A stretch of DNA of 63,979 nt, filler included, from Hausera hauseri (taxonomy: Eukaryota), in assembly GCA_046269625.1 (NCBI GenBank). It is 11 parts of 11 records of this genome, joined end to end, with 100 filler letters (N's around TTAATTAATTAA, not from the genome) between each part and the next. Parts side by side here need not be neighbours in the genome. Positions count along the whole stretch, not along the records: positions 51,021 to 59,887 come from JBJURY010517681.1; 10 more parts are not named here. The stretch is one strand, 5' to 3'. A program made the translations under genes and the position numbers. Below, in pieces: positions 4,469 through 63,977 of the stretch; the first letter of the stretch is position 1; every line of letters begins with the position of its first letter. Below the pieces are notes generated by a model. The model saw only the letters and a program-made list of their open reading frames with translations, did no database searches and was not told the DNA's origin.

Positions 4469-4818
4469 CTGATAGACTAGTGTGTATCTGATTTAAATAA
4501 ATACTCATTTGTATATAGACGAGTCTCTTAAATAACCATATAATGCAATATATTAAACAAATTTGTTTATAGAATTAGTGAATACCAACAGCATGACCCT
4601 GACCGACCTTAACAATTGGCCAATCGAATTACTAACTGTAAGAAATCAACCTCCCGAAATAGTTTATGGATGATATAAACTATACAATAACCCCCTACTC
4701 AATAATGTAACGGATCTAGGATACTCCAAATACTGACTATGGTTGCTATCAAAACTAATGAAAAAGCAGAGTATGAAATGTTACCATCCGTGATTACCAA
4801 TACATATCAAATGCAATT

Positions 4819-4918
4819 NNNNNNNNNNNNNNNNNNNNNNNNNNNNNNNNNNNNNNNNNNNNTTAATTAATTAANNNNNNNNNNNNNNNNNNNNNNNNNN
4901 NNNNNNNNNNNNNNNNNN
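4819..4918. other. Artificial contig linker (first of ten; others at 9515-9614, 14391-14490, 19496-19595, 26307-26406, 34270-34369, 38696-38795, 44903-45002, 50921-51020, 59888-59987)
   Basis: Identical 44N-TTAATTAATTAA-44N block with stops in all six frames; sequence composition changes abruptly across each linker. Confidence 0.98.

Positions 4919-4986
<68 letters not shown>
4919..4986. repeat. (TG)n microsatellite
   Basis: About 34 perfect TG units at the contig start. Confidence 0.98.
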
Positions 4987-4987
<1 letters not shown>

Positions 4988-5223
4988 CTCGTTATGTGTG
5001 TGTTAAGTATAGTTTATTTATATAGCACCTTTCCTAGACATAAAATCACAAAGCACTTCACATAAAATAAAATAAAAACAATAAAATAAATTAGTAAATT
5101 AAAACATCACCACAGCATTACATTCAAACGAGATGTATATGTGTGTATAGCTGACCTGCCAACAAGGATTATGTAATGTAGTAATAATTGGAACTTGCTA
5201 ATGATTGGAAACTTCTTTTGCAG

Positions 5224-9514: not shown

Positions 9515-9652
9515 NNNNNNNNNNNNNNNNNNNNNNNNNNNNNNNNNNNNNNNNNNNNTTAATTAATTAANNNNNNNNNNNNNNNNNNNNNNNNNNNNNN
9601 NNNNNNNNNNNNNNATTAATACAAAAAATACAACACGTCATAACGAAGATAT

Positions 9653-12370
9653 TTACGCTAACGCAACATGCCCGTGAGGTAGTGTGCTTATTCCATCACT
9701 CAGGATCTGCTTTTTGTCATCCATCCAATCTAGGCTCTTCTTCTGTAGTGCTACTGTCTCAATGTTATGAGCCCTAGACTGGATCCTTCGCATCTCTGAT
9801 ATGATATGAGTCTACTCATGCAGAACTCTCACATAGTCATTAAAGCCAATCTTCTTGGCTAAGGTGGCCCTTTGAATCCCCTTAGCCCGATTCTTTACTT
9901 CACCACGTACATCAAGGGCACACATTTTAGATCTAAGAGCCAACAATCTCGAGATGATTGCCCCATTCACTTCGCTTTGAATTTCCCAAGGAACATTTGT
10001 TGATAATTGAATAGTTGGGATGATCCTTCGGATAGTCAGACGTATCCATATGCTGAGCCAACTTAGAAAAGTCTGCATAAATGTCCTCCGTATGAATCTG
10101 ATAGACAAAACTATCAGTCTCCATGTACATTTGCTGTATGGACTTGAATGTGGGTACCATGATGTCATAGTGAAATTTGTAGATCAAAATCTTTGATACA
10201 TCTAGTATTGCTATACCCACATATATGGGCTTGCTGAATTGTAAGGATGTTTTCAGCATATGGATGCTGACCAAGTTCTCCGCATATATGATGCTTCTAT
10301 AAAAGTTGAGCTTGACAATGAGCTTCTATGCCGCTTCCACTCAGAGACCAGTTCAATGTTGATCCTTTTGCGGATATTCTCCATCGTTTTGCCAAAAACG
10401 CTGTTGTTGTAAAGCTTAAACTAGTCCTTCTCAAAATCGTTCTTGGCATTTTTCCGCAGCTTGGTATTAAGATCTATGGAGGTCTGCATCCAGTTGGTCT
10501 AGCTGAACTGCAGGCCCGATGGATTTTTGTAATACGAAGTCCATTCCTGACAGCTTTCTGGAGATTGATGTAGTGGACTACATACCTCGCCCTATTATCC
10601 ACATGACAGAGCAGCTTTCTGAGATTTCCATGGGGTGGAGGTGTGTTCCCAGGGAGGAGAGGCAGCTGTTGATGTCTTGTGTGGATAGAAGCCGAATATT
10701 CCATAGCCACGTCCAGTATGTATCCCATATGTTCAGTGAGATCCAGTTCCAGTATGGGGATGTTTTCGGGATACTCCACCTAGTTGAAGTCATCATATGG
10801 TAATGGGGCGATCATTGCACATCCATACAAATTGTTGGCATCTATGTATAATATATATGAGGATTCCTTGGATGGTTCATACTGGACCATAGTCTTGTTG
10901 TTGGCCTCACTATGCCGATGGATGTCCTGGCATATTCCGCCTCTAACACCTCTCTCAATCATGAGGATCATGTCGCAATCTTTTATGATCTGCAGCCTAA
11001 TACCGGTATATCTCAGCATTGCTGCCCAGATCATTCCTGATCCCGTAAAAAAATGAGTCGAATCCAATGTACGGCTCTTTACTATAACATCCCTGAATCT
11101 CTCAAAAACATCTGTCAGCAGTAGCACATCCGTATTGAGGTATATGTCGCTGTATTCCTCTAATGTCCGACAATAGAATTCATGCCAGACGTTCTAAGCA
11201 TGCTGGTTGTTCTCATCACTGATATGGCAATCAGAGAGGATATTATAAAAGTCCTTCTTGGCCGGTAATGACGTCTCATTTAGTGTTTCCCATAAAGTTA
11301 TGTAGTCATAGGGAAATATGCATTTCCCCTTGATAAGGTTAAATGTAGTAGGGAAGAACCGCTTCATCTCTTTCAGTTCTTCTGCAGGGAGGTTCTTCAC
11401 TAAACTGTCAAGCGAAGACGACATGAAACGTGAACTGTCTATGAAGCAAAGCCTGATTTTCCCAACATGCTTCGTAAATGCGATGTACTTCTTCTCACTG
11501 TTGGAGATCACATCAATGTTTCCTTCAATGCTGTCCACTTCCCGAACAATGAAATGGGAATCATAGCCACTGAGATTATGGAACACTACAGGCATATATG
11601 TACATATTTTGAAACGCAGATTGCAATTATTGCATGCTGCGCCTTGATATTTGCCTGTAAAATAACAATGATCCCTGACTTTATGATTCTCCTTAGTGAA
11701 TTATTTGGAGCACAAGTAAAATGCTGTTGCCTTGCGCCATTCTTCTTCTTGCTGCTTCCACGTGCTTATTGTATCCTTATGCTGCTGCTGTATATCTCCA
11801 ATCCTCTGAGCCATATTTTCAAGTCGCTTCATAAAATGAGCTGCTGCGCCTGGACCCCTGAATATATATGGTTCACTGTCCAGTCCTTTAGCATACATGC
11901 AATATGATGAGAGCTCGTGATATTGGTATGCTGTTGTGCTGCTATGTTGGAAATTAGGACTGAAACTCTGAACTGGGCGCAGGATCGCATCAAAGTTGCT
12001 ATAAATAACTATTGGGACCTTGATCTTCTTTTCGAACTTATTGAATTCAATGTAATCCGCCTTGAAAATTTCTGGCCTGATACGATAATTGTTGTTGCAG
12101 TACATCTTGTGCTCTTTCAGCTTTTCCACAGCTAACTTGCCATTGAAATGCGACAAGCATCGTTTACATATTTCTATTTGTCCATGATGTTTTGTAATTT
12201 GTAATCTGACTAGCCGCTCAAAGTCTTTGATCCAAACATAATGTTTCTTTTCTCCATCGTCTATTAGGAGCAGATCTCTATGATCTTCCAATTCAGTATC
12301 ACATATCTGCAGCGGATATGTAATATGTTCTCCTCATCCAATCCCAAGATATTGATAGATATATTGTTGT
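9653..12370 (-). pseudogene. Polinton/Maverick (adintovirus-like) protein-primed family B DNA polymerase, decayed
   Basis: HYVWIKDFERL, CKRCLSHF, IYSNFD (ExoI), GAACNNCNL, FHNLSGYDSH (ExoII), IFPYD, YIDANNLYG, KLYNNSVFGKTMEN, YMETDS; many stops and frameshifts. Confidence 0.95.
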
Positions 12371-12699: not shown

Positions 12700-14390
12700 G
12701 TAATCGAACTTCTGACGTCATAATCGGACTCCATATACATCATTTCTTATCTACCTATGCTTAAAGATTTGTCGATTTTCGCACCCTTCACCTTGAATAT
12801 CAAATTAATTAAAGCACACACATACTTGTGAATTTCTGAATGTTAATTTTTTCGGTAGATATTCATCGAACGTGGTCCATTTTACTTCTATACAAGGTTT
12901 TGACAGATGTAGAATCGATTAAAACCACCAGATTCTTCGAATATTGCATTCCCGATCGATTTTTCGAGTTCGAATCGATAACTATTAGATTTTAAATAGT
13001 ATTCGAATATCTAACACCATATTCGGATTCTCCACATATGCTTTCCTATCTGTGTGCGCTTAAAGATTTATCGCTTCTTTCACTCTTCTCTTTTAATTTC
13101 ACCTTTTAAGATTACCCAATTAATTAAAACAAATAAGCACCGTTGAATTACATAATATTTATTATATAATTTTTGCCATATTGGCAAACCTTGTTTTAAT
13201 TGACAACGATGCACTGCATTGCCATAACTTTGATTTCCTTATAGGTTTTCGCATATGGGAAATGTATTGGACTGATCAGATTCTTCAAATAACGTATGCT
13301 TGATCGAGTTTTAGAGTTCGAGTCGATAATTATTCAATTTCAAATAATGTATTCGAATATCTAACACCAGATTCAGAATCTTTATATATGGATTCCTATC
13401 TATGTACGCTTAAAGATGTATTGATTTCAGTGTGCTTCACCTCCAATTTCACCGTCAATTGTGCAATCAAACTAAGTACCTTTTAATTACTTCGTATTTT
13501 TATGTACTTTTTACTTGTTATTAAACCTTGTTTTAATAAACCTCGGTGCACTGCACCGCGCCAATATTTATTGTCCTATAGGTTTCCGCGCATGTAGAAT
13601 CGATTAAAGACATCAGATTCTTCGAATAATGCATGCTTGACCAAACATTATCGAAATTTTCTGTGTTATTTATTTCGAGACACTTGTGCATACTTTACAC
13701 ACCAAAAGTTTGGTCTACAAAGGTTTTCGGACATGGGAAATCCGACTGTACTATTCGAATATTCGAATTCGATCGAAAAATCGGCTTGTTTATTTAAGCC
13801 TCTTTTCGAATATCTGACGTCATATTTGGATTATCCATACATGGGTTTCTATCCCTCTATGCTTTTAGATTTTTCGATTTTTGTTTCTATTCGAATTGAA
13901 AACTAATTCTTCGAAAAGTTCGACTTGTATTCGAGTTTTCAAATATCTGATGTCATAGTCGGATACAGCACATGTTAGTTTCTATGTGTGTACGCTTTTA
14001 CATTTTTCGATTTCCACTTGCTTGTGTGCTCAAATCAACTTTATAGGTTTTATCGGAAAACCGTTATTATTGATTAAAACACACTTATACATGTGCGACC
14101 CATGTGAAAAGTTCTATATAGATGCACTAAGACATGGGAAATCGACGAACACTCTCAGATCTCTCAAAAAATCTATGGGTATCAAGATAATCGATACTAT
14201 TCGATGAAAATCGATATTTATTCGAGTTGTGCACCGAATTTCGGAAATCTGAAATGGAAGACTTGTGTTACAATGTAGCACTTCCTATCTATTCCGGCTT
14301 AAACACTTGTCAAATTTTGACTCCTTGGGATCTAAAAGAACTATGGAAAATCTGCACCAGTTGCACTTTGGATCGATATTATTCAAAATC
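12700..14390. repeat. Diverged ~340-bp tandem repeat array
   Basis: Recurrent blocks GGTTT..CATG(T/G)(A/G)GAA..CAGATTCTTC at ~12896, 13243, 13581, 13722, 14131 and GAATATCT(A/G)AC..CTAT..GCTTAAAGA at ~12715, 13003, 13353, 13806, 13940. Confidence 0.75.
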
Positions 14391-20424: not shown

Positions 20425-20718
20425 ATAATACAACAAGCCAATGTAGATTAACGTCTGAAAAATCGTATTCAAATAATTATGTAGATGATTCGAACATTGA
20501 GAATAAGGCTGAGTATTATGATTCTCATTGCGACAAAGCAAATATAATTCTGTTTGACAACGACCCATCTGCAATGAACACTCAAGAAATTCAGTTAGAA
20601 ACGGGTCAAAACCGAAAATTTTTTTGTTTGAACCCGACGTTTCCGCAAAATCTATTGATGATCATGGCCAACCGTATGTTATCCAACGAAGTGTTGATAT
20701 GCTTTTTGATGAGTTAAA

Positions 20719-23340
20719 TACTTGTCGAAATTTAATTTTGATGTCAAACATATTAATGGAGTTAACAATTTGATTGCTGATTTTTTATCTAGGTCGGTTA
20801 TTTCTATTAATTTTTCTCCGATTTTTACGCAAGAAGAACTCCAACAGAACCAGCCACCTCCAGACATGCTGAAGTCTTTCAAATCTTGCACAATCGTTGA
20901 TGGTGTGGCTTTAGACACCTCCAAATCAGGCCATTCAGTAATAATTCTAGCACCTTCACTGTAAAGACAGGCATTTCACCACGTACATTTTTTACACCAT
21001 CCTGGTGCTAAAGCCACCTTTCGTCTACTGCACCGACAGGTCATATGGCCGTCAATGCGTTCTGATGTGCAGGCATGAATTAAGGAGTGTGTGGCATGCC
21101 AAAAATACAAAACAACTAAGCATTTAAAGCCACCACTATTTTACTTCCCCTGCACATCGCGTTTTAAGTCCGCGCATATCGACATCGTTGGTCCTCTTCC
21201 TCCAGACAACGGTCATCAATTCATCCTCACCATGATGGGCCAGAAGCTATTCCTTTGTGAAGCACAAACACCGACACCATAGCTGACGTTTTCATCCGCA
21301 CATGGATTAGCAGGTTTGGATCACCTCGCTTCATCATCACAAACCAGGGTCCACAGTTTGAATCCAACGTGTTCAAATCCCTTGTTAACCGATTGGGGGT
21401 CCACCATATACATACTACGCCTTATCACCCCCAATAGAATGACCTCCTAGAACGTTTCCACCGTACATTGAAAACGTCACTAAGAATTCTCGCAGAGTCC
21501 TACAGTAGTTGGACGAATCTTCTTCTGTTCGTTCTGCTTGGCTGGCGGAACACTCCGTCCACTTCTACAGGATGCTCACCTACTGAAGCTTTATTTGGAG
21601 CTCCTGTCCGCTTATTATTCGAACTAACAGCCCTAGACGACTGTTGGTTATATAATTGATATCTGTAACGATAAAATAATCCAGACGATTGAAATGGCAT
21701 TAAAAATAGGTAATTGACATATAAAATTCCAAAATTATTCGACTGAAATGCTACATCCGCAAATAAACAGTAAATAATTCAAAATGTCTAAAGATCGGTT
21801 TATTTAGTTTGTGCAGAACAATCATAAAAACATAATTACAATATTTAAACAAAAATCACATTTTTCGGATAAGTGTGACGAAATGAAATAGGCACAACGT
21901 TAAAAAGCCAAATGTTCACTTGGAACTAAAGATATTGATGCATCCATAGCGGCCGAAATTTCAATATCGCTGAAACCATTAACTGGATCTCCATCAGGAT
22001 CAAATATAGGATTTGACAAATTAATACTTGATTCACTACAATCTGATAGTTCCAACACTGAAAATTCTAATTTCTTTGACAAACTAAATAGATAACAATC
22101 GGAACCAAATATTAAAATAAACGATTTCATCTATCAAAGCAAATTCAAATGCACACGTTACATGAGTAGTGACGGATATTATATCATTGAATTATTACAG
22201 TCGCCCATTTGATTCGATATCAGATTTTGTTGGTTTTAATTTTTCTAATGACAGTTTGTTTGCGTGAAAATCACTTTCATCAAAAAATTTTCGTTTGCTC
22301 GACTTCGAAATTTTACAAGAACTGATCTGTATTTCGAAGGTAAAAGTATAATCGACGGCCTCCGAACAAATAGAATAATAAGCTAACATCAAGATTTCCT
22401 TTGTTGACTCAAATCCATGGTAAATAATGATTATATTTTCCATCATTCCTAGACTTTCTCGGATGCCGATATGATATAGAAGTGTTCTTTGTTGACTCTT
22501 TGTATTCATGTCTAGTATAACCATATCCGCATTGCAGAACGTATCCGATGCTGTTGTTGATCCATAATCCAGCTGGTTAAATAGTATCGTTACAAGAGTG
22601 GGATTCGATCTATTGCATGTTTTTTCGATTTCATCAAATGCACGTTTACGGAAACCGCTTATTTGGGAATCATTACACGATATGTTTTCCTCAAAATCAG
22701 TTACGCAATCTCTTCATCGTGTAACTTAAAATTTTTACTATTTTGATATCGACGAATATTTATATTGAATCCATCTGTCAAAATTTCTCTAATATTCGAA
22801 TTAGTGCTGTTTATAACAACCTGTTGAACAAAACGATCAAATAATTCCAAATATGAGTATCCGTTTTCTTTTATCAGAGGTAAAGGGAACAGGTGGTATA
22901 GCCTTTAATCTGATTTATGAACGCTCCATCATTGCCACTTCGAGGCTGAAAACCGGGGGCCGTCTATGCGCCCGACGCGCCAGCAGCGGAAAACCTGACC
23001 GTGCCCAACCGAATGGGCCGGAAGGCAACAGTCAGCGCGGGCACCACAACGACACTCCCACAGATGAGATGATACGGGCGGCGCAAAACTACTTCGTCGA
23101 GGTCAGCAAAGATTCGTTCTGCAGGCTACTTCACAAAGACAAAACATACTTACCCAAAGATTTGTATTCGGCTAAATTCGCATGGCTGAAGAATCAAGCT
23201 CCTTGTGGTTTCCAGCCACGGTACCTGGGGCCCCACAAACTGTTACAGCTGCACTCGCATAACGCCATCATCTCAAAAAACGGTAAAGACTTTACAGTAC
23301 ACATTACTAACATAAAGCCCGCTTTCTTTGTCGACAACAC
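20719..23340 (+). mobile_element. Ty3/Gypsy pol remnant (RNase H end and integrase), split by an insertion at 21642-23048
   Basis: FDVKHINGVNNLIADFLSR; HHCC finger HFLHHPG..WPSM..CVACQ; HIDIVGPLP; NQGPQFES; TTPYHPQ; ERFHRTLK; after the insertion, GPY/F module QPRYLGPHKLL..IKPAF. Confidence 0.93.
21642..23048. mobile_element. 1407-bp solo-LTR-like insertion (TGT...ACA) with 5-bp TSD ACGAC
   Basis: ACGAC at 21637-21641 and 23049-23053; removing it restores the in-frame integrase LTALDD|TPTDEMIRAAQNYF. Confidence 0.85.
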
Positions 23341-34108: not shown

Positions 34109-34267
34109 TTATTCATAATAAATATGTATCATTTCCATTACAGTACATTTACATTCTGGACACTGGTTGGTTGCTTTGGTTGTGATGTTGGAACACATTT
34201 AACAAACAACGAGATGACCACACATTAAGAACACCGTATCCAGTTTTCTTTGTTTACATAGTACACA
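34109..34267 (-). pseudogene. IAP-type RING finger fragment
   Basis: CVLCKQRKLDTVFLMCGHLVVC*MC..CPECK..IHIYYE*; DNA is homologous to 63804-63960. Confidence 0.85.
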
Positions 34268-34595
34268 CANNNNNNNNNNNNNNNNNNNNNNNNNNNNNNN
34301 NNNNNNNNNNNNNTTAATTAATTAANNNNNNNNNNNNNNNNNNNNNNNNNNNNNNNNNNNNNNNNNNNNCTTTATCCGCCTGAAACAAAGGAAGACTATA
34401 CAAACATTGTAGTTCGAACAATATGTATTGCAAACATTAAAGAATATAAAAAAAGACAGAGAAATTTTTTACTTGTGTGTACTATTCCTACATTAGCACT
34501 TGCAATATTTTTATCAAGAGTTGTTCATTAATAAATATATTTCCATGTTCAGTTGTGTATTTTATAAACAAGATCAATACCAACATGTAATTAAA

Positions 34596-42745: not shown

Positions 42746-44902
42746 CTAGTAACGCCATTGTCCTTTCTTTTTAAATTTAAGTTTGAGGGTGATTGTTTGC
42801 TCTTTAGGGATTTTCTTCCTTTTTCTTTTCGAATCTGTGATTAGTATTTCGTTGGGTTCAATGATTGGAGTTGATTGGATATTACTAATTGATGGTTGTA
42901 TCGATACTTCTGATCGATTGTCCATATTTGAAGGTTTGGGAAAATTAAGGGATATTTCCAATGGTGTCTTTGTTATAATATTTGTTATTTCTAAATTATT
43001 AGTATCCATAGGTTCATCATGCGATATAGCAGTCTCTTTATCAAATAAAGTCGGAGATTTATCTGTAATTTTAAGCATTATTGATGTGGGATTTACGATT
43101 GATTTTTCACTTTTATATTCTTCCAGAGTATTATACATTTCCAACATAATTAGAGCTTTGTCTTTCGTCCTGGTTGGGTATTTGATATTATTATACTTTA
43201 AAAAGATTTGTTTTTGAGTTAACGTTCTTTTTGGATTTATGTGTTCATTATAGAATAAATCACGTATGCCCATTACTTGATCCATATTAAAAAGGGCTAT
43301 TTGAGAATTAATGTTGAATAGTGTCATCCCTACTATCATCTTTCCCACTAGTTGTTGTCGGATTGTAGGCCAGATTTGATATTGGTCGGCTTGGCCGATT
43401 AAATCTGTTTCTCTTATCCCAGTTATCTGGGTATTATAATTATCTACGCGATCTCGTGGAGTGACAAATTGGTCAAAAATAATTTTTCCTTCCAGGTTCA
43501 TTAAGGTGATTTCTATAAGAGTAGCTTCTGAACGAGTGTTTTTCATTAAGTATGCAACATTGATGGATAAAATAATCACTTCATTTTTTGAAACTGTAGA
43601 CACCCTGGAAAAGGAACATCCTTCTTCGAGTTGAGCTTTGCTGGGGAGAGGTAAATTGTAAATAGGTATATCATATTCCGGACGTGGTATTCTTTCACGT
43701 CTAGTCACCTCAATATATAAAATAGGACTAGGTCCTCCAAAAGTTCGTAGCGCGATAGCAACGTTTTTATAGAAACGTTGGTCAAGTCGAATGGTAGTGA
43801 AGGGAATAACATCCATTTGATCCGTCATATTATTTCTATGACTTCTACTTTTCAATTGAAGACTGGCTTTGATAACCGACAAGTAAACGGAGGTTGTTTT
43901 AGTGAATATGTCTATTAAATCAGATAGCAGGGTGGTTGTATTAAGTAGTTTTATAATTAATCCTGCTCTTTGGGTTACCAGATGGCCTTTGAGATTATTG
44001 GGATATAACGTAGCTTTTCCATAATATATATAGTCTTTGTGTTGTGTGGACTCCAAATTAGATGAAATATTGTAGTAGAAGGACTTGGCCCTCTCTACTG
44101 TTTCGGCACCTTCTTGGACTGAAAGAAAACACATCAATAATAACCATGAAAATCTTTTTAAAATAATCTTATGATAGGTTGTATAAGGCTTTATAGCCTG
44201 AATTTTTTTACAATTACGTTTATTTTGGTAGGTCGCTAAGATTTTCGCAGCCTCATTTTTTATATGTGTACACATACACAGTGTAACATATGTTAACGGT
44301 TGAAGTTGCCGTTTGTATTTTGGAAGCTTCTCAGCTTGAGGAGACGCACTTATTTCACTAACCTTATCATTTTGGGAATCCTCTCTTAATAATTTTAGTT
44401 CTTGCATTATTTTTCGGGCTTTATGCCTTCTACGTCTTATTCTAGAGCAATAAATTATTAAGGGCACTATTATGACTGCCAATATTAAAACTGTGCACAA
44501 TACAATTAGTGTCCATAAATATATATTTGAATTATTTTTGTTACTTTGTGTGGTTAATATTTGTGAATTTTTTGTAGTAGTTATGATAATTTGTTTTAAC
44601 GTTTTCACCATACGATAAATCATCTGTAATTACTGTCCGTCTTCGTCTAATTCTGTCATGATAACTTTATAGTTGGTATTGGCCTTTAAAAATATACAAG
44701 CTGATGTAGGCTCATTTGGGGTTATAATTCCTTCACTAATCATTCCTTCATAAAGAAAGCACTCAAATTTTATGTTTGTATTCTTCAGGTTTGATACCGT
44801 AATAATGAGAGAATGTGGCATCGACTGTATAGTTATATCCAGTTTTCTATTAATGTTCATAACCTCAATCAGTTTCTGTGTCGTTAAGCTTGTGATAGAA
44901 GT
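42746..44902 (-). CDS. Probable retroelement accessory polyprotein: FN3-like ectodomain fragment, TM helix and inactive REX4/ISG20-like DEDDh exonuclease
   Basis: 44630-44860 is in frame with the 625-aa ORF across one stop; TM LWTLIVLCTVLILAVIIVPLIIYC followed by RRRRHK; exonuclease-like IEITLMNLEGKIIFDQFVTPRDRVDNYNTQITGIRETDL..LVGKMIVG, with ExoI DxE replaced by SINVAY; PPT 70 nt after the stop. Confidence 0.75.
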
Positions 44903-51020: not shown

Positions 51021-51713
51021 AAGGCTAAAACGGAACAGTGCGTAGGACAAATCATGGAAGTACGAGATGCGGCAATGTATTTCTAGTATTTACAGACAGA
51101 CGAAGACAAGGAACAACATGACAAGAATCTAGTACTACTAAGTGGGATAATAACCAATGTCCCAGAGCCTAAACACCCGGTTGGAAGACCTAGGAAGGCC
51201 CGAGAAGGGGTTGACTATAATGGAATATTAATTAGATAGCTGAGACAGATGTCGATTCCCACCTTTAGCACCGACAATGAAGAGTTAAACGAGTTAATGA
51301 AGAATTTAATACCTATCGTAAATTATTCAACCCTTCGAGGAGATACATTAGACACTAAAGAAAAGGGGATATTTAACGCAGCTAGGACAATGAAAAATTC
51401 GCGTTTCAAGCTGTCGAAAAGCGGACTAACTGACCACGCAGTAGTTGAGAAGATTATGGTGGAAAATACGATAGAAGAGTTGAGAAAAGTATTATTGTAC
51501 TTGGCAATTAAGACAAATCCAAATCGAGAAAATCAACTAAATCGAGCTACAAGTTTGGCGCGAAAAGCATCTAGGAAGCTTCCGTGCGAAATAAGTTGGC
51601 CAAAGTTGTTTGATAAGGAAGAAGACAAAAAGAAAAATAGTAATAATGAACTCGGGGACATCATACGGAACTTGACGACATCGGATAATAACAGCCGAAA
51701 GAACGAATCTAAT
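51021..51713 (+). pseudogene. Leader region in frame with the glycoprotein, containing an AT-hook-like motif
   Basis: One frame with two stops from the contig start; KHPVGRPRK at ~51171-51197. Confidence 0.45.
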
Positions 51714-53653
51714 TGGTTAATCAGTTTGCTCACCATAATAATGTTGATAAAACAGATGGGCGCCGTCATCGTTTACGATTGCGATAGATTTAAGCTTAGA
51801 CAAAAATACTCACAAATGGATTTAGAAGCATGTAAAGATGCCAGACCACATAAATTGGAAACAAAGGAGAAGAGTTATTTCCTATACCAACAACAAGAGT
51901 TGATGTCTTTGGATGGTATGGAATGTATGCTGAGATGATCTCGTAGCATTTTACTGCGGGCTAATGCACGGGCACTCCTCAATAGTTAAACCTACAACCC
52001 TCCGATCCCAATTAATTTGGAAAGATAACACTGAAATCAGGCCAGATAAACCGTAAGATTGAAATGGGATACTATAAAACCAGAAATGCAGCCCGGAAAG
52101 ATAATCAGAGCATATAAAATAGTAGTTGGAAGGCTAGATATGCATAATAGGCACTGTAGCAGAGCAGAATACGACAACGGAAAAGGACTGGAAGCAAACA
52201 TAGTAGTAGTAGAAGACCTTTACGAATCGGAGATGCGAGTACAAAAAGTGATGTTCCATAGCGTTATTAAGCTGTATACCGAGAACTAAAAATGTCACAT
52301 ATAGGACGGAACCTGTACATTCAGAAGTTCCATTGTCATATGGGAACCGCCCACTGGAAAAGGCTGTAATTTTATTAAAATTAAGGAATTGAAATTTACT
52401 GAAACAACTGGGACACGATACGTAGACAAATTCGACATCAGTTCAAGAGCACGTGAAGATGTATCAGAGCATTATATACCTACTATATTGATCTCTGATC
52501 AGCATGGATTGAAATTTATAAAAAAATGATTTCACGTTGCGAAGTAGTAATGTTCACCACTAATTACAAAGCGTTCTTCGTAGCAGAAACGGAAATAAAC
52601 GCGAAAATATACAACTTAGAAAAGCAAGATATTAGAATTGACGATTACTTGAAAAACGGAGACGATTACTTTTATTATAAAGGATAAGTCGGGATAGCCG
52701 AACTATATTACAAAATGATAACTAATGACTACCAATTAGATACGGAAATTATGAGGACAAAATTAGCTCTTATTTATGCAAACCCGGAGTTTACCTTACC
52801 AATTATTCCCATGAGAGAAGGAATTTTTGGTTGAGTTACTGGCGAAGTCCTACTGACATATGAATGCGAGAAAAGAGTTGTACCAATCAACGTCGAATAA
52901 AAACGATGCATACAAGAACTTCCTGTAATCTACCGGAATACTCCACGTCTAGCCATGCCCCTCACTAGAGTGTTGCTGGATAATGCAACACAACCTACAA
53001 TCTTAAAGGATTGCAAAACAAGTTTGGGTAAACCAATGTTCAGACGTAGCAAAACGGAATGGGTTTGCTTACCCAATGGAGGTGTTACCATCATTCCTAA
53101 AAAGTTGACTGGAACTAATTTAGCAAAAGGAATTACTGATGACAAGTTTCAGGATGCATTTTAAAAGGGTATTTACAGGCCTAAAGAAATCGAAGCTTTT
53201 CGACAATTTCTCGCTTTTCCACGACCGCGAAAACACAAATTAAATCAAGCTATGGCATAAGTAGTCGACGATATCCGATACCAGACTAAATGGGAATCCC
53301 TGCTTGGTGCAAACCATTACCAACGGGTAACTACATAGATACTCTACAAAATATGGGGAAGATTTTTAATTTTTGGACAAGCCGCATCGGGATTCTTAGC
53401 AGTTGGTTTTTTGGTACCACTAGTAAAGGCGGTAATTCAAGCAATCATAATTGGGTACGAAATATTCACATTAACAGGATTTTTATGCAAGATCTTAACC
53501 GCAATTATTACACCATTCGGCAAAATGCTTAAAGCCTATGAAGAAAATCGATGGAAGAATGACGTTGAACGACATGTCGGCAGTCATAACTATAAACGAC
53601 GAGCAAGGCCCACATTTCTACTAAAACGGAACCCCAGAATCAGAAAAAATTAA
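51714..53653 (+). pseudogene. Class III (chuvirus/herpes gB-like) envelope glycoprotein, decayed
   Basis: Signal WLISLLTIIMLIKQMGA then VIVYDC..C..LYQQ..C..YCG..H; GTC..IVIWE..C; G*VTGEVLLTYEC..CIQELPVIYRN..PLTRVL..DC..PMF..W; GIY..FLAFP; C-terminal hydrophobic helices. Confidence 0.85.
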
Positions 53654-55585
53654 GGCATTTGTTAGGCTTATGTAGATATTATGCCACTTACGCACCAGAC
53701 AATTCGAAAATAAATGCTCCATTATATCGGCTATTGACAAAAGGTATCAAATGGAAATATCAGATGGACCGATGTCGAAAAGAAAGCGTTCGATGAAATA
53801 AAGAAAATTATAACAAGTGAACCAGTGTTGAGATACCCCGATTTCAGTTTGCCATTTATAATTAAAACACGACGCAAGTAAAAAGGGAATTGGTTACGTA
53901 TTGGCTCAGAAACCAGAAGATGATGAAATGGAAAACCCAATTGCATATGGAGGACGATCACTTAAGAAAGCTGAGAAAAACTATTCAATTACTAAACTTG
54001 AGGCACTAGCCGTAAAAGAAGCTTTAAGGCATCTTAATGTCTATGTCTATGGGCAGAAAATTATTATAGTTACCGATCATAAGGCTATTACAACGTTAAA
54101 GAAACGAGCTAATAACCAAATATGTAGGGTAAATCGGTGGATCGAAGGAATCTCCAGATACAATATTTAATTCCAACATAAACCCGGAAGCAAACATCGA
54201 CGCAGACTCTTTATCAAGACTTAAAACAAAGACAAGTACAATTACGACCACGAAGAAAGCTTAAGTCGAAGAATTAATAGAACGACAACGGGCTTTAACA
54301 CTAAATAAAACAACTAAAATTTCTTCAGAACAAGCTAAAGATAAAGTTATCCATCAAATAGTCAAATTTTCCACGCAAAGTGAAATGCCAAAAGGACGTC
54401 AGCTAAGGAAACACTTAGAGAGACACGGACATAAATATTATGCATCGAATCAAGATAATATTCTATATTACGAACGAAAGGAACGGAAACTAGTAGTTAT
54501 TCCAAAAGGATTACGAATGGAAGTCTAATGGCCAAACATGATTCACATTTAGCTGGACATATGTCATGGAAGAAAACATTAGAAAGGAGATTGAATAAGT
54601 ACTACTGGCCAAGCGTTTATATCGATGTAAAACTGTGTAGACGCTTGTGAAGTCAGTGCGACAAAACAAAAGAAAGGGAAAAATTATGTAGCGGAATTAA
54701 AACCGATTAACGTACCAGATAGACCTATGCAAGCCATGTCTATGGATATAGTAGGACCTCTACCTACAACTCACAAAAATAACAAATATATTCTGACATG
54801 CGTAGACTGTCTAACACACTTCGTTGAATTAATAGCACTAATCGACCAGAAAGCAAAAACTTTAGCAGATGCAGTAGTAAGAAGGATTATCTGTAGATAC
54901 GGACCCTTCAATCGAATATTAACCGATAAAGGAAGGAATTTTACGAGTGAATTATTTTATAGAATTTCTAAACTTTTCGACATCGAACGATTAACAACTA
55001 CCGCATATCATCCTCATTGCAACGGAATTGTCAAACATATGAATGCAACCGTTCTGCGAGTCCTATCGACCGTAGCCGCGAAGGACCAAAAAGACTGGGA
55101 AGAATTCTTAGAAGGAACACAATTTGCGATCAATACTACCCCGCATTCCGCCACAGGATTTACACTATTTTATGATGTATGGACGTGAAGCGATATTACC
55201 TACGGACTTAGGAATGACTCCGTATCACGCAAATCCGGAAGACATAAAACCAAACTTCCCAGAAGTCGTACAAATGTTATTACAAAAATGTTGGAATATA
55301 GCTAAGACGCTTATCCTTGAGTATCAAGAGCAGTTTAAGAAACAATATGATAAGAAGGCAAAACCTCACGATTTAGAAAAGGGAAACTGAGTCTACGTGC
55401 ACTACCCGGTCGAAAAAAGGGTGCGTCGTTAAAGCTTACTCGTACCGGACGAGAGCCTGACGAAATTATTAGAACCACATAAACCACTGTTTATATTAAT
55501 AAAAATGGCAAAGAAGAGGTAATATCCATACAGAGAGTCGTTAAAACAGAAATAAGACTAGAAAGACGTTATAATTTGCGATCCG
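53630..55585 (+). mobile_element. Ty3/Gypsy pol remnant: RT thumb/connection, RNase H and integrase (RT core absent)
   Basis: LRHLLGLCRYY, WTDVEKKAFDEIK..PVLRYPDFSLPF, DASKKGIGYVLAQ, AEKNYSITKLEALA, TDHK, H..GH..YYWP, MDIVGPLP, TDKGRNF, AYHPHCNG, RRYNLRS. Confidence 0.95.
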
Positions 55586-55649
55586 CAGATCAGAGTTTAA
55601 ACCGAAAACAGGACAAAAGGAAAAAAAAAAGACATCCAATATAAACAAT

Positions 55650-56915
55650 AGGCCAATATCTTACGTACAGCTAATCTTAGCATTATGGTTAATCGCCTGT
55701 TATGTTCCAAAGACCCAAGCGCAATGGTGGAATGATAGCGAATCCAGTTTGACGGATGTATATGGAATTAGTAAAAGCGGAAGGGAAGATAAAATTAGAT
55801 AGGAACAACAACACTTGGAAGGACGAAAATATGTGAAAAATTTAAAAATAATAAAGCCTATGACTCAGATTGGAAAAAGCCCCATATTTGCTTCAAAGGT
55901 GACAAAGATACTAAATAGTATATGTAAATTCGTATAAAGTTTACGAATCAAAATAAAGAAAGGATAAAAATTGTGAGTTTGGATATGGAATTTATAAAAA
56001 ATATTGCGAACTAGATTTCGGACGAATATACAAATACATAATACATATGTATTATTACCCTTATGAGATTATTCAAGTGGAGGTACGACCACAGGTCGAA
56101 ATAGCTATGCCCAAGCAAGCCCTAGCGGATAGCGTGAAACTATCCGACATAGTTCAAAGTACTGACCCCATAATTAGATCATTGGATGAAAATATAATTG
56201 AAGTTTCCAAGGATTTGGAACACCCATATATCCAGATTAAAACTGGGACAAGACTAACCGAATCCTACCAGATCTCGGTTCGATTTATACCATCTAAAGA
56301 AACAAATCCGCCAGCAGGATATTTCGCTATCAGTCGACAAAACCCAAAACCGTGCTGTAAAATACCCCAATGGTACAGTTTCGAGATACAGTTCGACCTA
56401 TGTAAGATCAGACCATATCAGCCAAGCACATACCTAAGAGGATACCGTTTAAGAAGACAAAATTGGAAGATTCCAATCAGAACGACGACAACGATTAGTA
56501 CTACTATTAAAATCGTCACGACGAGGAAAAGACCCGGAAAGCAACCGGAAAGTATTCCTATTAGATACTTATTGCAGCGAAATAATATAATATTCTTTGT
56601 CGAAGAGAAATTAAACTATGATGTAGAGATAAACTGTCGAACCCTGTATAGTAAACAAAAAGCAACACTTGCAAGAAACACGCAGACAGAGCATATAATA
56701 GAAATTAATGCAGTAGGAAAGCATAATCAAACAATCACCCTACATACTTTAACGGAAAATGTTTACCTAGAACAAAAAAATCAAAACATAGACGATATAA
56801 TTACTACATATATGACAACACAGAAACCAATTGAATTAACAACTTTACCTATTGTATAAATGTTCGGAGTGTCAGGGTTCGTCTTGATAATAATAATAGC
56901 GTCACTTTATTGCTA
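55650..56915 (+). pseudogene. Type-I membrane protein in the env position, apparently unrelated to gB
   Basis: Signal-like YVQLILALWLIACYVPKTQA; ectodomain ORF 56047-56859 with Thr-rich stalks; TM in frame after one stop (MFGVSGFVLIIIIASLYC). Confidence 0.6.
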
Positions 56916-57109
56916 AAAATTGTAAAAAACAGCGCAAAAATAAGGATAAAGAAATAATGGTGGTATACCAGAGTGATTTATATGATAAAATAATCTGGAA
57001 ATTACAGGTCGGGTTATTCTGTCATCAGACAGTGAAAATATTTCATTTCGAAATACGAATATGTCTTAAGAATAATTTTATTTACTTTTATTTCAGATTG
57101 GTAAGTAAA

Positions 57110-57769
57110 ATGGCAAGTCGAAAGAAAAGCTGTGACCAGACAGACATCGACGAATTTTTACAGTCAAACGCGATGATAATAACACCCAACTCCAAAGCTA
57201 CATATCGGCAAATCCATGTAGAACTGCAGAATAGAACATCAGTGGAATATAATCAGATGGACAAAATCCCTAACAACTTGAAGGAGATCGTGGAAGAAAA
57301 CAGAGTAAATCGATTATACGCCATAAGAAACAACGAAGGTGCCCGATCCTACAACCTAAAAAAACTAATAAAATCCGAGATAGGACCTCCATGTAGTGTG
57401 TATATACATCTAGCTGAAGGAGAAATTTATTACAGATTAGATGGACAGAACTGGAACTCAAACAAAGGACGGCAATACAAATTCAGCACTTTCAAGCTGG
57501 ATGGTAAAAGCTTATACGAGACCGAAGCAGAATTAAGGATCTCATACTTAGCCGTAAAATTAATGTTGGAAATCACCTGTGAAGAAGTTTCAACCTTACT
57601 TCTGCCCCCTCTAATATACCACCAGTACCCAACAGAGGATCAAATAAAACGACACTTTGGTTCATATAAGCTAGTACAAAAGAATGGAACATTCGCATCA
57701 TTTCAACGAATTACGGAAAAGGGGATGACGGAAATTCTATTCCCATCGAAATCTCCATTCGAGTCATAA
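57110..57769 (+). CDS. Retroelement accessory ORF of unknown function
   Basis: Open frame MASRKKS..; preceded by the strong acceptor TTTACTTTTATTTCAG (57081-57096). Confidence 0.55.
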   Translation: MASRKKSCDQTDIDEFLQSNAMIITPNSKATYRQIHVELQNRTSVEYNQMDKIPNNLKEIVEENRVNRLYAIRNNEGARSYNLKKLIKSEIGPPCSVYIHLAEGEIYYRLDGQNWNSNKGRQYKFSTFKLDGKSLYETEAELRISYLAVKLMLEITCEEVSTLLLPPLIYHQYPTEDQIKRHFGSYKLVQKNGTFASFQRITEKGMTEILFPSKSPFES

Positions 57770-58526
57770 ATGGAGTAGAAGTTTAGTCTAGAATAATCAT
57801 ACATCAGAAAAGAGTAAGGGAGACATTTGCAGAGATAATGTAAAGCAGAAAAGGGGATTTAACCAATGGAAAGGACGCCAAAATTGTGGAATTAGAAATA
57901 AATCACTGTTTATATGGGTGCATGATTGCAGGATTTCAAACCCAGGAACAAATTGACAAACTGAGAGTAAACCGTGAAAAAATAGAAGGAATACGTAAAT
58001 TTTGGACCCACCCCGAAATTAAAGAAAGAATGGATAAGGTGAACCGACCAGTTCCTGTGATTATAACGACCCAATTTAGAGCAATGATACAGATCATGAA
58101 CGGAACCCACTATAGAATTAATCGACAGCGAATCGTAGAACACAAGGGATAATAATATGCAAATTATGGTGTTAAACCAAGAGAATATTGTTCAACATAA
58201 ATCAAGCAGCGTTACGTATGGATTTCAAGCACATATAAAGACAAAAAATTTGAGGAAAGTCATCAAGGAACATCAACCAAAAAGCACAAACTGAGAAACC
58301 CATGCGAAGAAAAGAAAACGAAATTAGTATTCGGGTTCCTAAAGAAAAGAGATAATGGATCATCCAAAATTGGGCAAGCTGAAAAACGTTCTATGAAAGA
58401 AACCACCGAAAGTATACTAAAGAAAATTAAAGAAGTTAACGTTCTAAAAAGGAAAAAGAAAGTCTACGAAAAACAACCACATAGACGAATCAAAACGACG
58501 AAACAGAATGGCCCAGAATCTTAATC

Positions 58527-59042
58527 ATGGCAGAGTATGTAAGTCATGGAAAGATCAAAGAAGCAGTATTTTATATCTATACAATGCCAATATTGGAAAT
58601 ACAGAAAAACGCCTACGCTCCAATCGACCCGAAGTTAGGAAGATATTTATCGTCAGTATTCAGATCAAAGATAGGAACTAAAAAGATAACCGTGTCGGTG
58701 GATAACCAAGCTAGGATAGAAGTAAAAGAACAGTATAAGAAAATGGGAATCCCGGATTTAGATGCTCAACAAGTAGTAGAATGGACCCTTATAGCCGTTA
58801 ACGGCGACCCCAGAAAAAGCTCCATAGACCCTAAACAGAAGCAGTTGCACAAATACCTCTATAAGAATTTCAAAGGATTGTTGTTCCAAGAGATAACATG
58901 GATTACGGACTGTGATCTAGACAATGATACCAAAAATTTCTGCCCTGTATGTGAAGCAAACTTATGGCAGGATTATGTGGTGCTACGAATAGGAATTGTT
59001 GACACCGACACTGTCGAGATTGTTTGGAACAGTGGACGTTGA
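58527..59042 (+). CDS. Retroelement accessory ORF with CxxC, function unknown
   Basis: 171-aa intact frame between integrase and PPT; A-rich codon use like the rest of the element. Confidence 0.55.
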   Translation: MAEYVSHGKIKEAVFYIYTMPILEIQKNAYAPIDPKLGRYLSSVFRSKIGTKKITVSVDNQARIEVKEQYKKMGIPDLDAQQVVEWTLIAVNGDPRKSSIDPKQKQLHKYLYKNFKGLLFQEITWITDCDLDNDTKNFCPVCEANLWQDYVVLRIGIVDTDTVEIVWNSGR

Positions 59043-59440
59043 TTAATGGAAAAACAACATTTCCAGTATGTCAAGCAGAGTGATCTCAGTTGAAATACTT
59101 TCCCCGCGGAGAGAATAATCGCATAGTTGAGATAAAAGCACCTACCGCTTATTACCTGGAACCGAATCCCCAAACTAGTATGCGGGTCAATTCCGAAAAC
59201 GATTTACGAGAAAGGCTAAATGCGTTACAACGCCCAAACGATGGCGCCACCTCTCCTGACGCAATAGGCACATCCAAGGATTTCGCTCAGGGAGGAGAAA
59301 TGTTGTAAATGAGTAGAGGTGTAAAAAAAAAGTATTCACACGCACATAATATTTACATATTGGGGACATTCGTTTAACGAGAACGTTAAACCGAATCTGC
59401 TATTAAGACATTAATTTCAAGTGTAAATTACGTTATATGT

Positions 59441-59649
59441 AGAGGGGAGTGATAAGGGCCACCCTAATATATAACATTTNNNNNNNNNNTGTTAATGAAC
59501 AATAGTTAAATATGACTGTGATTAAATGAACACTTGATTAGGCCCTTCCTCTAATTGAGTGAATGAGTAAATTTATCTATAATAAAAAATCCTTCAAAAT
59601 ATCATGTCTTGATTCTTCCATGGTAAACAATCTACTAGTAATTTCATCA
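59441..59649 (+). mobile_element. PPT and 3' LTR (end approximate)
   Basis: AGAGGGGAG then TGATAAGG at 59450; AATAAA at 59581; candidate end ..ATCA at 59649. Confidence 0.6.
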
Positions 59650-60029
59650 TTTATTGTGGTTTAATTCATTCTACTTTTGAAAATTCTCCTCTACCTCTAT
59701 CTTGAATTTGAATGAGTTGGCCACAAAGTTCCACATATTCAGTTCTTTGGATATTCATACATGAAACTGTTCTGTCTGGTGACGCTTGTGGTTCGTCTAC
59801 ATTAATTAATTCGTTATTCTTAATTTCTATGCTCACTGGATTATACCAATCAGTTTGTATTCCATATTCTAGTAATAAATCATCATCNNNNNNNNNNNNN
59901 NNNNNNNNNNNNNNNNNNNNNNNNNNNNNNNTTAATTAATTAANNNNNNNNNNNNNNNNNNNNNNNNNNNNNNNNNNNNNNNNNNNNCTCTTTGTTTTAT
60001 TATAACAAAGTCGAGTAACATAATTTACA

Positions 60030-62944
60030 TATCCGGACGTTCATTCATACCGATACCTGAAGCTCTAAAGCATTCTTATGCGGTAGTGAATGTAAAAAAC
60101 ATGAACAATGATTACTGTTTTATTTACAGTCTTCTGGCGGTATTAAAATATGACGAAGTGGAGAGACATAGTGAACCTTGTCCAAAACAGTATCGGCAGT
60201 ATTTTTCCGAATTGCAATTCGACGAAAACTGCATGCCGATAAAACTAAAAGCCATTCCAACATTTAAACGGCGTAATCCGATGCTGTCAATCAACGTGTT
60301 CCGGTAACATACAATAGTTGAAATACCGGAAGATAAAGAAATTTACAAGAATCCACATGTGAATATAATATATCGAAGTCCGAACCCGAATGGACGCACA
60401 GTAAATTTTTTATTGTAGGAGCAGGCAGAAAATTTTCATTACGTGGCCGTAACAATTTTGGACCGACTGTTGAACATGGATTACTATCAGTTTGCCTAAA
60501 ACCAAATACGTTGTAAATAGTGTTTTACACGTCTGCATGGCTTCAGATCAGAAACCACATGGGAAAAACATATGACGCTCTGCAGACATAATGCATTATG
60601 AACAACAATGTACGTCATGCCAGTCAAAAAGGAGCTGCGATTTAGTGACTGGTCTAAAACGGACAGTACAACATATATGATATATGCTACTATTGAGGCA
60701 ATCCTACTACAGCACGACGTATGCGATCAGAAACATGTTCCAATTGCCGTCAGAATGTTGGTTGTATCAATAAAATCTTCAGGTCAACCTGCATGTTTCA
60801 CGCCTGGAACTGTATGCGTGATTCCCTGCACCATATAGAAATAATAGGTGAATCGGAATAACAGCACAAAACCCCTGATTTGGACAGATGAAGATGAACG
60901 CCTGACGTTTGCAATCACCGTTTGATGCGCAGGAACGATACGTACCGAATCATGACCACTTTACCACTCTATATTTGGGAGCAGCATGTAATTCATGCAA
61001 TTTAACGAGACGTTTGCGGCCATTCCTACCAATGATCTTTCATGATTTTCTAGGTTATGATTGTCACCATATACTGAAGTGGGCCATCAACGGATTTCTG
61101 CACTGGGAACTGTCCATAATCTCAATAACAATGGAGAAGTATCTGTCCCTGTCAGCACGCATAAACCGGTTTTATGTACGCTTCCATGATTCATTGCCAT
61201 TTCTGAATGAATCATTGGCGAAGTTGGTAAATGCCTTGCTGGATGTGCCGATAACCTTAAAACTGTTCTTCACACACATTTCACGCAGCAAAGGCATATT
61301 TCCATATGACTTTGCACCACCATATGAGCGACTCTGGACAGCAGAGGAATTACCGCCGCGATGGACAGGCATCACAGAAGCTGAATATCGGAGTTCACAA
61401 AAATCTTGGACAGAGCTCGTCTGTAGAAACATGTTGGATTACATACTTCAATATGTGAAACTGAACGTGTACTTATTGGCCGATGCGTTTCAGGCGTTTC
61501 GGGCGGAAGCGTTGGACAAAGATAGGCTGGAGCCGATCAACTTTTATTCCATACAGGGAATAAATTTGGCGTCAGCTCTAATGTCACTGGGTCGAGACAT
61601 TGAGCTTCATCAAGACCAGGAAATGTACCTGCGGTTTGATGTTGGTATTCGCGGGGGCATGAAATTTGTCAACAAGCATCAGGTCAGTGCTACCGATACC
61701 ACATTACTGTTGTATATTGATATTAATAACCTGCACGGCTGGGCGCTTTCACAACCCTTGCCGTACGGTTCATTCGAATGGGTTATCGACAGATAAGATC
61801 TAAACGACATAATGGTCAACCTGGCACAAGCACACATGGCAGGCTAGTCGGACATCTGATGTAGGTCGATCCTGAGATACCAGATGAGCTGCATGACGTT
61901 TTGGACGATTTTCCGGTCGCACCATTTAACCAATGTCCACCAGGCTCAAAAGTGAAGAAACTGCTCATAACGAATGAACCGAGGCTGAATTACCTGGTCC
62001 ATTGGCGTCTGCTACAGTTATACATGTAGTTCGGTGTTCGCGTTGCACAGTTGATTGTGCAATCCGATTTGCTCAGGCGCCCATATTTAAGGCTTACATA
62101 GATGGAAATTCGAAGAAACGAGCCGCAGCTTGTACAAAGTTCGAAAAGGATTATTACGAACTGAAAACAATTTCATGTACTGAAAAACAGTGGAGAATCT
62201 GAAAAAGCGGCTCAATGTACGCGTATGCAACAACGAAAAGCGGCTGGTTACGTATACCAGCAAGGCACAGTTTCGGCGGTCATTGCACATTGTCGATGGA
62301 TTGGTTGCCATGTTGTTAAACAGAGAAGAAGTCGTTTTGGACCGGCCAAGTTACATTGGACAAGTGGTATTGAACCTGAGGAAGTTGCGAATGTATAAGC
62401 TACAGTATCTAGACTTGACACGTTACCGGCAAATGTTTGACGGCTATGACATTAGAATAATTGTCCGTGACACAGACAGTTCTTTACTGCGGCTGGAAAA
62501 AGTAAATCGCGAACAGCAACGGCAGCAAATGCAATCAGATGGATTACTGGACACGTCCAACTATCCACCGGATCATCCGTTGTACAACAGCGCGATCCCT
62601 AACAAAATCGGCTGCTTCAAGGATGAAAGTGAATGTACGGTTCAGTATCGTGAATGGGTATTTCTACGGCCACAATGTTATAGCCTTTTCACTGATGGTG
62701 GACCGGAAATGCGAGCCAAAGAAGTTCAGTTGGTCCACACTGAAAGAAACCACGGTGATTATTGTCGTATCTATGAAAAAAAGGACAATCAAAGGCTGTT
62801 ATGTCACAAACGACCATCCGATCGATTGAGAACCAATTGTATACGGTGAACAATACAAAAGTCGCTTTATCATGCCATGATAATAAGCGTAAGTTGGTGG
62901 GGTGGAATAAGAGTTGGTCGTAAGGACATTGGCGTTTGAAATAA
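60030..62944 (+). pseudogene. Second Polinton/adintovirus protein-primed DNA polymerase B, decayed
   Basis: SFIPIP..VVNVKN..DYCFIYSLLA, HDHFT..GAACNSCNL, FHDFLGYDCH, KGIFPYD, IRGG, YIDINNLHG, RDTDS, DTSNYP, IGCFKDE. Confidence 0.95.
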
Positions 62945-63803: not shown

Positions 63804-63977
63804 TCATTCGTAATAAATGTGTACAGTTTCCATTATAGCACATTTACATTCTATACATTGGTGGGTTGTTACTTTGGTGAAACACATTTGACAAACAACG
63901 AAATGGCCGCACATTAAGAATACCGTATCCACTTTTCTTTGTTTACATAGTACACACATAAGCTGACAGTCTCGTAC
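63804..63977 (-). CDS. IAP-type RING finger C-terminus (5' part outside the window)
   Basis: MCVLCKQRKVDTVFLMCGHFVVCQMC..CIECK..VHIYYE*; all eight zinc ligands intact. Confidence 0.88.
   Translation of the reverse strand, partial: VRDCQLMCVLCKQRKVDTVFLMCGHFVVCQMCFTKVTTHQCIECKCAIMETVHIYYE

Follow-up and report, generated by a model that had tools for sequence, protein, structure and literature searches.

How does a retroelement come to carry a fusion glycoprotein ahead of its polymerase and a second, different membrane protein behind it? The question is raised by one contig (JBJURY010517681.1) of the Hausera hauseri assembly GCA_046269625.1, which makes up positions 51021-59887 of a 63,979-nucleotide stretch of DNA. 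That whole stretch, hereafter the window, consists of 11 unrelated contigs separated by N44-TTAATTAATTAA-N44 linkers, and all positions given below are counted along it. The contig has a GC content of 0.37 and its start falls inside a reading frame. A first-pass annotation had offered two explanations for what it saw there, namely an internally deleted element with a 5' fusogen and a separate 3' attachment protein, or a recombinant of two elements. Our analysis suggests, with a probability of roughly 85%, that the element is a dead copy, with an internal deletion, of a GAG-ENV-POL-type Ty3/Gypsy element resembling Burro, and not a recombinant. The post-integrase membrane protein, to which this copy points, is a conserved trait of the family formed by its relatives.

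Results

The glycoprotein had been described as decayed, with YDC, YCG, GEV, CxxELPV, PLTRVL, and GIY..FP signatures, all of which were located (YDC, 51774; YCG, 51952; GEV, 52841; CIQELPV, 52907; PLTRVL, 52958; GIY, 53168; FP, 53216). Pfam Monjiviricetes_fusion (PF24664) matched its C-terminal half (52532-53545) with an E-value of 1.7e-33 (116 bits; cut-off, 27) and its N-terminal half weakly (E 0.0045), and the relative P0001 aligned with 34% identity (E 8e-56). Judged by its sequence, this is a glycoprotein B (gB)/chuvirus-type Env lying 5' of pol. From the signal segment (51717) to ~53600 it covers ~630 codons, split among at least three frame segments and interrupted by several stops; stops and frame breaks of the ectodomain lie near 51940-52050 and 52520. 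When the gB piece was compared with longer proteins through a word index, nothing matched, whereas an exhaustive search found many. Comparison of the gB profile with the PDB by sequence returned only proteases and no glycoprotein, and no chuviral L or N genes were found among the 15 pieces of the contig that were scanned.

As the first-pass annotation had stated, the glycoprotein adjoins reverse transcriptase (RT) thumb, RNase H, and integrase sequences, with the Pfam families RT_RNaseH_2, RT_RNaseH, Integrase_H2C2, and rve following it (Table 1). The RT-RNase H-integrase order, together with a Gypsy-type RNase H and an H2C2/rve integrase, is a Ty3/Gypsy feature as far as Pfam assignments go, and the integrase core matched the cores of relatives at 36-43%. 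A further Ty3/Gypsy feature, a polypurine tract (PPT) followed by a TG...CA long terminal repeat (LTR), is present at the 3' end only, and no second LTR copy was found in the window. The junction itself was delimited by tblastn. P0001 aligned through the glycoprotein tail to residue 1011 (53602) and picked up again at residue 1572 (53629), skipping 560 residues; P0154 aligned to residue 1153 (53590) and picked up at 1909 (53632), while P0151 picked up at residue 2674 (53599). Relatives other than P0001 skip more. Pieces of gag and of protease plus RT core from four relatives (five queries) gave a best E-value of only 0.85 against the contig, in keeping with the reported lack of gag, protease, and RT core. 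Since the contig begins in mid-frame, the lack of gag is attributable to truncation and need not be a loss. Without a protease and an RT core, the window copy cannot be autonomous.

To place this arrangement, we turned to its relatives. The C-terminal half of the glycoprotein, searched exhaustively, had 348 matches, and gene order was surveyed in 18 proteins scanned from the best 150 of these. Protease and/or RT followed gB in one frame in 11 of the 18. Among the best ten glycoprotein relatives, nine had the protease directly after gB in the same frame and the tenth (P0007) ended after its transmembrane (TM) segment; in the weaker matches P0038 and P0106, env came last, as is usual. Two more proteins, P0151 (4844 aa) and P0154 (3003 aa), were drawn from cluster members. 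The seven relatives that extend through the integrase share the order (Gag)-signal-gB-TM-protease-RT-RNase H-integrase-signal-ectodomain(-TM), and the DNA of L001 and L003 holds it in a single frame (at least 3426 aa in L001; 2693 aa, from Gag to the final TM, in L003). Gag marks were seen in L002, L003, and P0010. Since several rows are near-copies of one another (P0004/P0151, P0006/P0154, L001/P0007, and L003/P0019), the rows outnumber the independent cases. The window is collinear with these relatives apart from at least 560 absent codons covering the protease and RT core, and a single internally deleted element is therefore the most likely explanation. The first-pass annotation had made its case turn on gene order in intact copies; there, the closest glycoproteins precede their own protease-RT-RNase H-integrase, and the linkage seen in the window is not refuted. 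The order that it proposed, a 5' fusogen and a different 3' membrane protein around a deletion, is thus shared by intact relatives, but in these the two proteins are parts of one polyprotein and not separate genes.

In a glycoprotein tree of 51 pieces, every one of the 15 rows with protease or RT after gB fell in one group of 18 rows (SH-aLRT 93), and so did the window. P0038, a BEL-type row (DUF5641), had a much weaker glycoprotein match and lay outside that group. Searches for relatives in viral contigs (364 candidates) and in prokaryote genomes (326 candidates) found none, while a metagenome scan yielded at least three loci from 595 candidates. The complete env-pol polyprotein P0001 (HBK71150.1) carries the label of a Flavobacteriaceae metagenome bin, most likely because an animal contig was binned by mistake.

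The second membrane protein was seen where it had been reported, after the integrase, with hydrophobic segments at both ends of a 300-codon frame (Table 1). Its frame holds no Met upstream of the signal segment, as expected for a polyprotein tail rather than a separate gene. All seven relatives that extend past the integrase have a signal-like segment there, six have a final TM under a strict filter, and in six the YxLR motif lies 186-225 residues past the integrase core motif. Eight post-signal ectodomain repeats from five relatives, cut by eye, form one family, each left-out repeat beating 300 of 300 shuffles. Foldseek matches to a structural model of the L001 ectodomain were headed by tandem fibronectin type III (FN3) fragments (best E 5e-7), its first domain superposing on fibronectin FN3-6 with Z 10.2 and a root-mean-square deviation of 2.1 A over 83 residues; as modelled, the L001 second ectodomain is a fibronectin type III fold. 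L001 has, in addition, a signal-FN3-like-TM cassette inside Pol (4750-5340), between protease-like domains, so that the count of membrane crossings stays even, and P0151 has one extra hydrophobic segment whose partner fails the filter. For the window's own protein, the best domain on the relatives' FN3-like profile (56569-56682) reached a score equalled in 6 of 2000 shuffles, and at the level of sequence its FN3 likeness is only suggestive. No sequence homologue was found among 545 candidates, the best match in PHROGs was an unnamed family (E 0.00016), and a single-sequence model of the ectodomain had a pLDDT of 31.7.

Additional domains accompany the glycoprotein and protease in the relatives. 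A domain 5' of the glycoprotein matched Bcl-xL/Bcl-2 in five of them (E ~1e-4), at 2632-3057 in L002 and 911-1280 in L001 and also in P0002, P0007, and P0016. It adjoins the glycoprotein signal segment, a position in which it would be tail-anchored like cellular Bcl-2 proteins. The window segment 51417-51614 occupies the place of this domain and aligned with the relatives' Bcl-2-like profile collinearly, though not significantly (E 0.059, 27% over 66 columns); a shuffle test of the segment gave no support for a Bcl-2-like identity. GRPRK at 51183, in the same upstream region, we take to be AT-hook-like. L002 has a ubiquitin match (E 0.0047) and P0151 an ankyrin domain. Tandem aspartic-protease-like domains occur within one polyprotein in P0151 (seven stretches), P0009 (three), P0003, and L001, and could possibly be single-chain dimers or have dedicated cleavage roles.

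One public run (X1) contains this stretch, and no RNA run was listed as containing it. In X1, 15,431 contigs align to it at 80% likeness, 7,121 of them less than 90% alike, and the element is plainly highly repeated. Summed depth in X1, which is not equivalent to copy number, was 2,000-23,000 per bin across 51021-55756 and 13,500 in the bin just before the LTR (59013-59308), and fell to 4.6 in the flank (59605-59887). Bins over the glycoprotein and over pol were of similar depth, with no dip at the junction. Starting in the gB tail, nine X1 contigs keep in register as far as ~53610 with 21 of 30 letters alike, where the best chance match elsewhere in the window was 19. Between the second membrane protein and the LTR lie four frames (57110-59308) for which nothing significant was found across Pfam, PHROGs, the PDB, viral contigs, and the fetched proteins; the first two have repetitive depth in X1. 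No tRNA genes were found in the window.

TABLE 1. Features of the element on the contig at positions 51021-59887 (KD, Kyte-Doolittle hydropathy).
Feature	Positions	Strand	Basis or remark
Cytosolic region 5' of glycoprotein, same frame	51021..51716	+	Cut by contig start
Predicted internal signal peptide of glycoprotein	51717..51773	+	KD 3.05 over 11 residues; adjoins YDC; same place in relatives
Decayed ectodomain of the fusion glycoprotein, chuvirus/gB type (predicted class III)	51774..53350	+	PF24664; P0001 match
Glycoprotein TM region and cytosolic tail (predicted)	53351..53600	+	KD 2.32 over 17 at 53402-53452; frame closes at 53653
Deletion junction, protease and RT core missing	53590..53630	+	At least 560 codons relative to shortest complete relative
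RT thumb and connection, broken	53602..53869	+	tblastn to 7 relatives; RT_RNaseH_2 E 5e-9
RNase H	53862..54200	+	PF17917 (RT_RNaseH) E 9.5e-29
Broken integrase of Gypsy type, with H2C2 zinc finger, core, and C-terminal part	54525..55420	+	PF17921 E 6e-8; PF00665 (rve) E 1e-13
Post-integrase YxLR motif (RYNLRS)	55567..55584	+	Motif also in 6 of 7 complete relatives
Predicted second signal peptide	55656..55721	+	Hydrophobic 55656-55706, KD 2.08 over 17; such a segment in all 7 complete relatives
Second-protein ectodomain (predicted), broken near 55800 and 55916-55957	55722..56859	+	Open frame 55957-56859, 300 codons
Candidate FN3-like stretch in second protein	56569-56682	+	Best domain on relatives' FN3-like profile
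Second TM segment (predicted), behind in-frame stop	56860..56913	+	KD 3.05 over 11
Accessory frame, 219 aa	57110..57769	+	Nothing significant in Pfam, PHROGs, the PDB, or viral contigs
Accessory frame, broken, Lys-rich	57844..58524	+	No significant match
Accessory frame, 171 aa, has CxxC	58527..59042	+	No significant match
Short frame, end overlaps PPT	59084..59308	+	Reading frame
Polypurine tract	59289..59300	+	Purine run adjoining LTR
Inferred 3' LTR, 176 bp, TGTT...AACA	59301..59476	+	Depth falls in flank

Discussion

Several observations weigh against a single, internally deleted element of this family. The window's gB branch is long (1.66) and the support of its group is below 95, and a tree of RNase H plus integrase (25 rows) gives the window a long branch and no supported group, so that its pol is not placed with the elements that have gB upstream. 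The best integrase matches are not all from the relatives' family. L002, which has both Gag and gB, has a stop between them, just before the gB signal. None of the X1 contigs listed spans the junction with 31 letters to each side. The unplaced pol and the lack of a listed bridging contig, together with the fact that template switching is common in LTR elements, would favour the recombinant raised by the first-pass annotation, or a nested insertion, in which the 5' half came from an env-before-pol element and the stretch from the RT thumb to the LTR from another. Yet the 3' half bears the marks of the family (the YxLR motif and the post-integrase signal and TM), so both parents would have belonged to it, the two halves have similar depth, and the junction is what a single deletion yields. 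We therefore regard a recombinant origin as improbable. A join of the gB tail to the RT thumb made by the assembler within a collapsed high-copy repeat appears more improbable still. Very high depth, the many variants, the short-contig assembly, and the possibility that X1, which alone contains the stretch, is its source would all suit such an artefact, but the resulting order is the natural order of the family and variants run in register up to ~53610. None of the 6 loose ends listed, with 1,937 others beyond the listing, lies at the junction, which also argues weakly against it.

The identity of the second protein is less secure, and here too some evidence runs against our reading. Scored as a whole frame on the FN3-like profile, the window protein was equalled in 60 of 1000 shuffles; against the FN3-like family, hhalign gave an E-value of 0.057; and the L001 ectodomain model was built on a three-row alignment with a mean pLDDT of 59. 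The post-integrase domains of L003 and P0017, two of the seven complete relatives, do not score on the profile, so that ectodomains of different kinds occur at this place. Summed depth across 55757-59012 is 240-1,500, ~30-fold below that of pol, so most copies lack this region or differ there; it may be absent from them, or the second protein and accessory frames may diverge faster. It is conceivable, albeit unlikely, that the window frame is an unrelated captured gene or a second fusogen (for example class II-like) that shares position alone with the FN3 protein of the relatives. The low depth, the lack of a sequence homologue, and ESM features that placed the protein with flavivirus E and alphavirus E1 clusters (0.75-0.80) would fit this possibility. 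ESM scores below 0.9, however, were reached by one third of shuffled proteins and are leads only, a limit that also applies to the FN3/cytokine receptor score of 0.82-0.83 for a relative's second protein. Moreover, its best domain was matched on the FN3-like profile by very few shuffles, and its signal and TM are placed as in relatives. A captured gene would concern the identity of this one protein and is compatible with an internally deleted Burro-like element.

The first-pass annotation held that gB-type env normally lies 3' of pol. This is the arrangement in BEL/Pao elements such as Anakin and Tas, but a 5'-placed fusogen is already known, given Burro, a planarian element of more than 25 kb, and the gB elements of GAG-ENV-POL type in three phyla. 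According to the text available for them, the Burro/GYPSM1 giant Gypsy elements of planarians carry env in frame between gag and protease as one polyprotein, with an env akin to mononegavirus-type fusion proteins, a Bcl-2-like domain before it, and ubiquitin-like and ankyrin domains (Arkhipova and Yushenova; PMC6431247). Our relatives share with Burro an env in frame with gag and pol and the Bcl-2, ubiquitin (L002), and ankyrin (P0151) domains, a likeness by description and not by sequence comparison. The window differs in its 176-bp LTR and in being a deleted and decayed copy, and what is present of it shows no BIR/MATH domains; the available part of the Burro description, for its part, makes no mention of a post-integrase membrane protein or of FN3 (PMC6431247). 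GAG-ENV-POL errantiviruses whose env is of the HSV/gB type (HSV, herpes simplex virus) have been reported from Nematoda, Bryozoa, and Platyhelminthes (Chary and Hayashi, 2026; PMC13524379) and share with the window a Ty3/Gypsy pol and a gB-type env 5' of it. The main text of that report, as far as it was accessible, treats them as three open reading frames (ORFs), does not contain the terms "fused," "single ORF," "same ORF," or "in-frame," and describes no second membrane protein. Truncated elements were excluded there, whereas the window copy is truncated and its ORFs are not intact. The same report cites non-canonical nematode endogenous retroviruses, of metavirus type, with env and pol in flipped order (Sacco, 2022, as cited in PMC13524379). 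Anakin and other BEL/Pao elements carry a chuvirus-like glycoprotein, by the portions available of Dezordi (2020, 2023), and share the family PF24664 with the window, but they have a BEL-type pol with env 3' of it, in contrast to Gypsy-type Pfam families and a 5' env. Troyka was rejected as a counterpart, since the available text gives CG...CG ends (PMC12440569) where the window has TG...CA.

The literature searched, which did not extend to Grohme (2018) and Sacco (2022), whose figures may show these TM segments, yielded no description of FN3 or of a second post-integrase membrane protein in Gypsy elements. The post-integrase protein thus seems to be undescribed. The Burro figure of Grohme (2018) reportedly bears a "TMD" label.

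While the domain order, the collinearity, and the single frame of the relatives are observed, we infer topology, processing, and function from hydrophobicity and order. The intact form would be one polyprotein crossing the endoplasmic reticulum (ER) membrane four times. Gag and the accessory domains would lie in the cytosol, and the first signal would send the gB-type fusogen into the ER lumen. The first TM would return the chain, so that protease, RT, RNase H, and integrase would be cytosolic, and the second signal would send the second ectodomain (probably FN3 in most relatives) into the lumen, where the second TM would anchor it. The products may then be freed by signal peptidase together with one or more aspartic proteases of the element, which would yield two type I membrane proteins in the same ratio as Gag and Pol and leave Pol tethered to the membrane that they occupy. 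The gB protein would fuse membranes, a role that follows from its family. The window copy presumably lost its protease and RT core, kept its PPT and LTR, and decayed afterwards.

What the second protein contributes is a matter for conjecture. FN3 tandems serve as adhesion and receptor modules, and herpesvirus gB requires partner glycoproteins for binding and triggering. Because of these properties of FN3 tandems, and because gB-type fusogens commonly need partners, we tentatively prefer adhesion or receptor binding for cell-to-cell passage, at somewhat less than even odds, over a host-signalling decoy; the decoy and any other role seem about equally plausible, each a step behind adhesion. The term "attachment protein" in the first-pass annotation is an interpretation that the modelled FN3 fold would fit. 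A bolder and rather doubtful proposal is that these elements form a two-glycoprotein entry lineage, in which a class III fusogen and an FN3 attachment protein would be cut, together with Gag and Pol, from one polyprotein by alternating signal peptides, as in a flavivirus- or alphavirus-like polyprotein centred on a reverse transcriptase. On this view, the role of the second protein would be that of a swappable tropism module, present as FN3 once or twice, duplicated in Pol, or replaced.

The window copy is dead and matters mainly as a pointer to the conserved second membrane protein. This type I protein is a candidate for the means by which gB-type retroelement envelopes find their target cells, and the tail of such Pol proteins is overlooked when the elements are annotated as three ORFs. 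Topology and binding can be put to the test in L001, L003, P0001, and P0154, which are intact natural relatives.

Other sequences on the stretch

A second member of the family is represented by its 3' end on another contig of the window (42746-44902, minus strand). An FN3-like stretch there (44633-44902, minus) had a score reached by none of 1000 shuffles and is followed by a TM; beyond this lies an exonuclease-like region with homology to the frame that L001 carries after its polyprotein (E 1e-12). The host carries more than one lineage of this element family. In L001, that frame (10617-12104) is separate from the polyprotein and encodes a DEDD/RNase T-type exonuclease (PF00929, E 1.4e-5); rotifer LTR elements likewise carry DEDD exonuclease ORFs, according to the accessible part of their description (PMC5408684). 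A decayed integrase at 20700-21640 belongs to another Gypsy element.

The remaining contigs read by their frames as fish-like, bacterial, or AT-rich animal, and ASK1-type domains are present. Fragments at 9615-12333 and 59988-62849 read like a protein-primed DNA polymerase B, presumably of Polinton/adintovirus type. The contig at 34370-38695 is bacterial-looking, with frames that we take to be a C-terminal protease, GreA, and PurH; its presence among animal contigs indicates that the assembly is mixed. There is a RING finger frame at 4100-4468. Five diverged 78-nt repeats (family D8) lie at 12700-14012 with a spacing of 133-453 bases, and the contig ends at 34111-34269 and 63806-63958 share ~150 bases at 83-90% identity (families D11 and D12).

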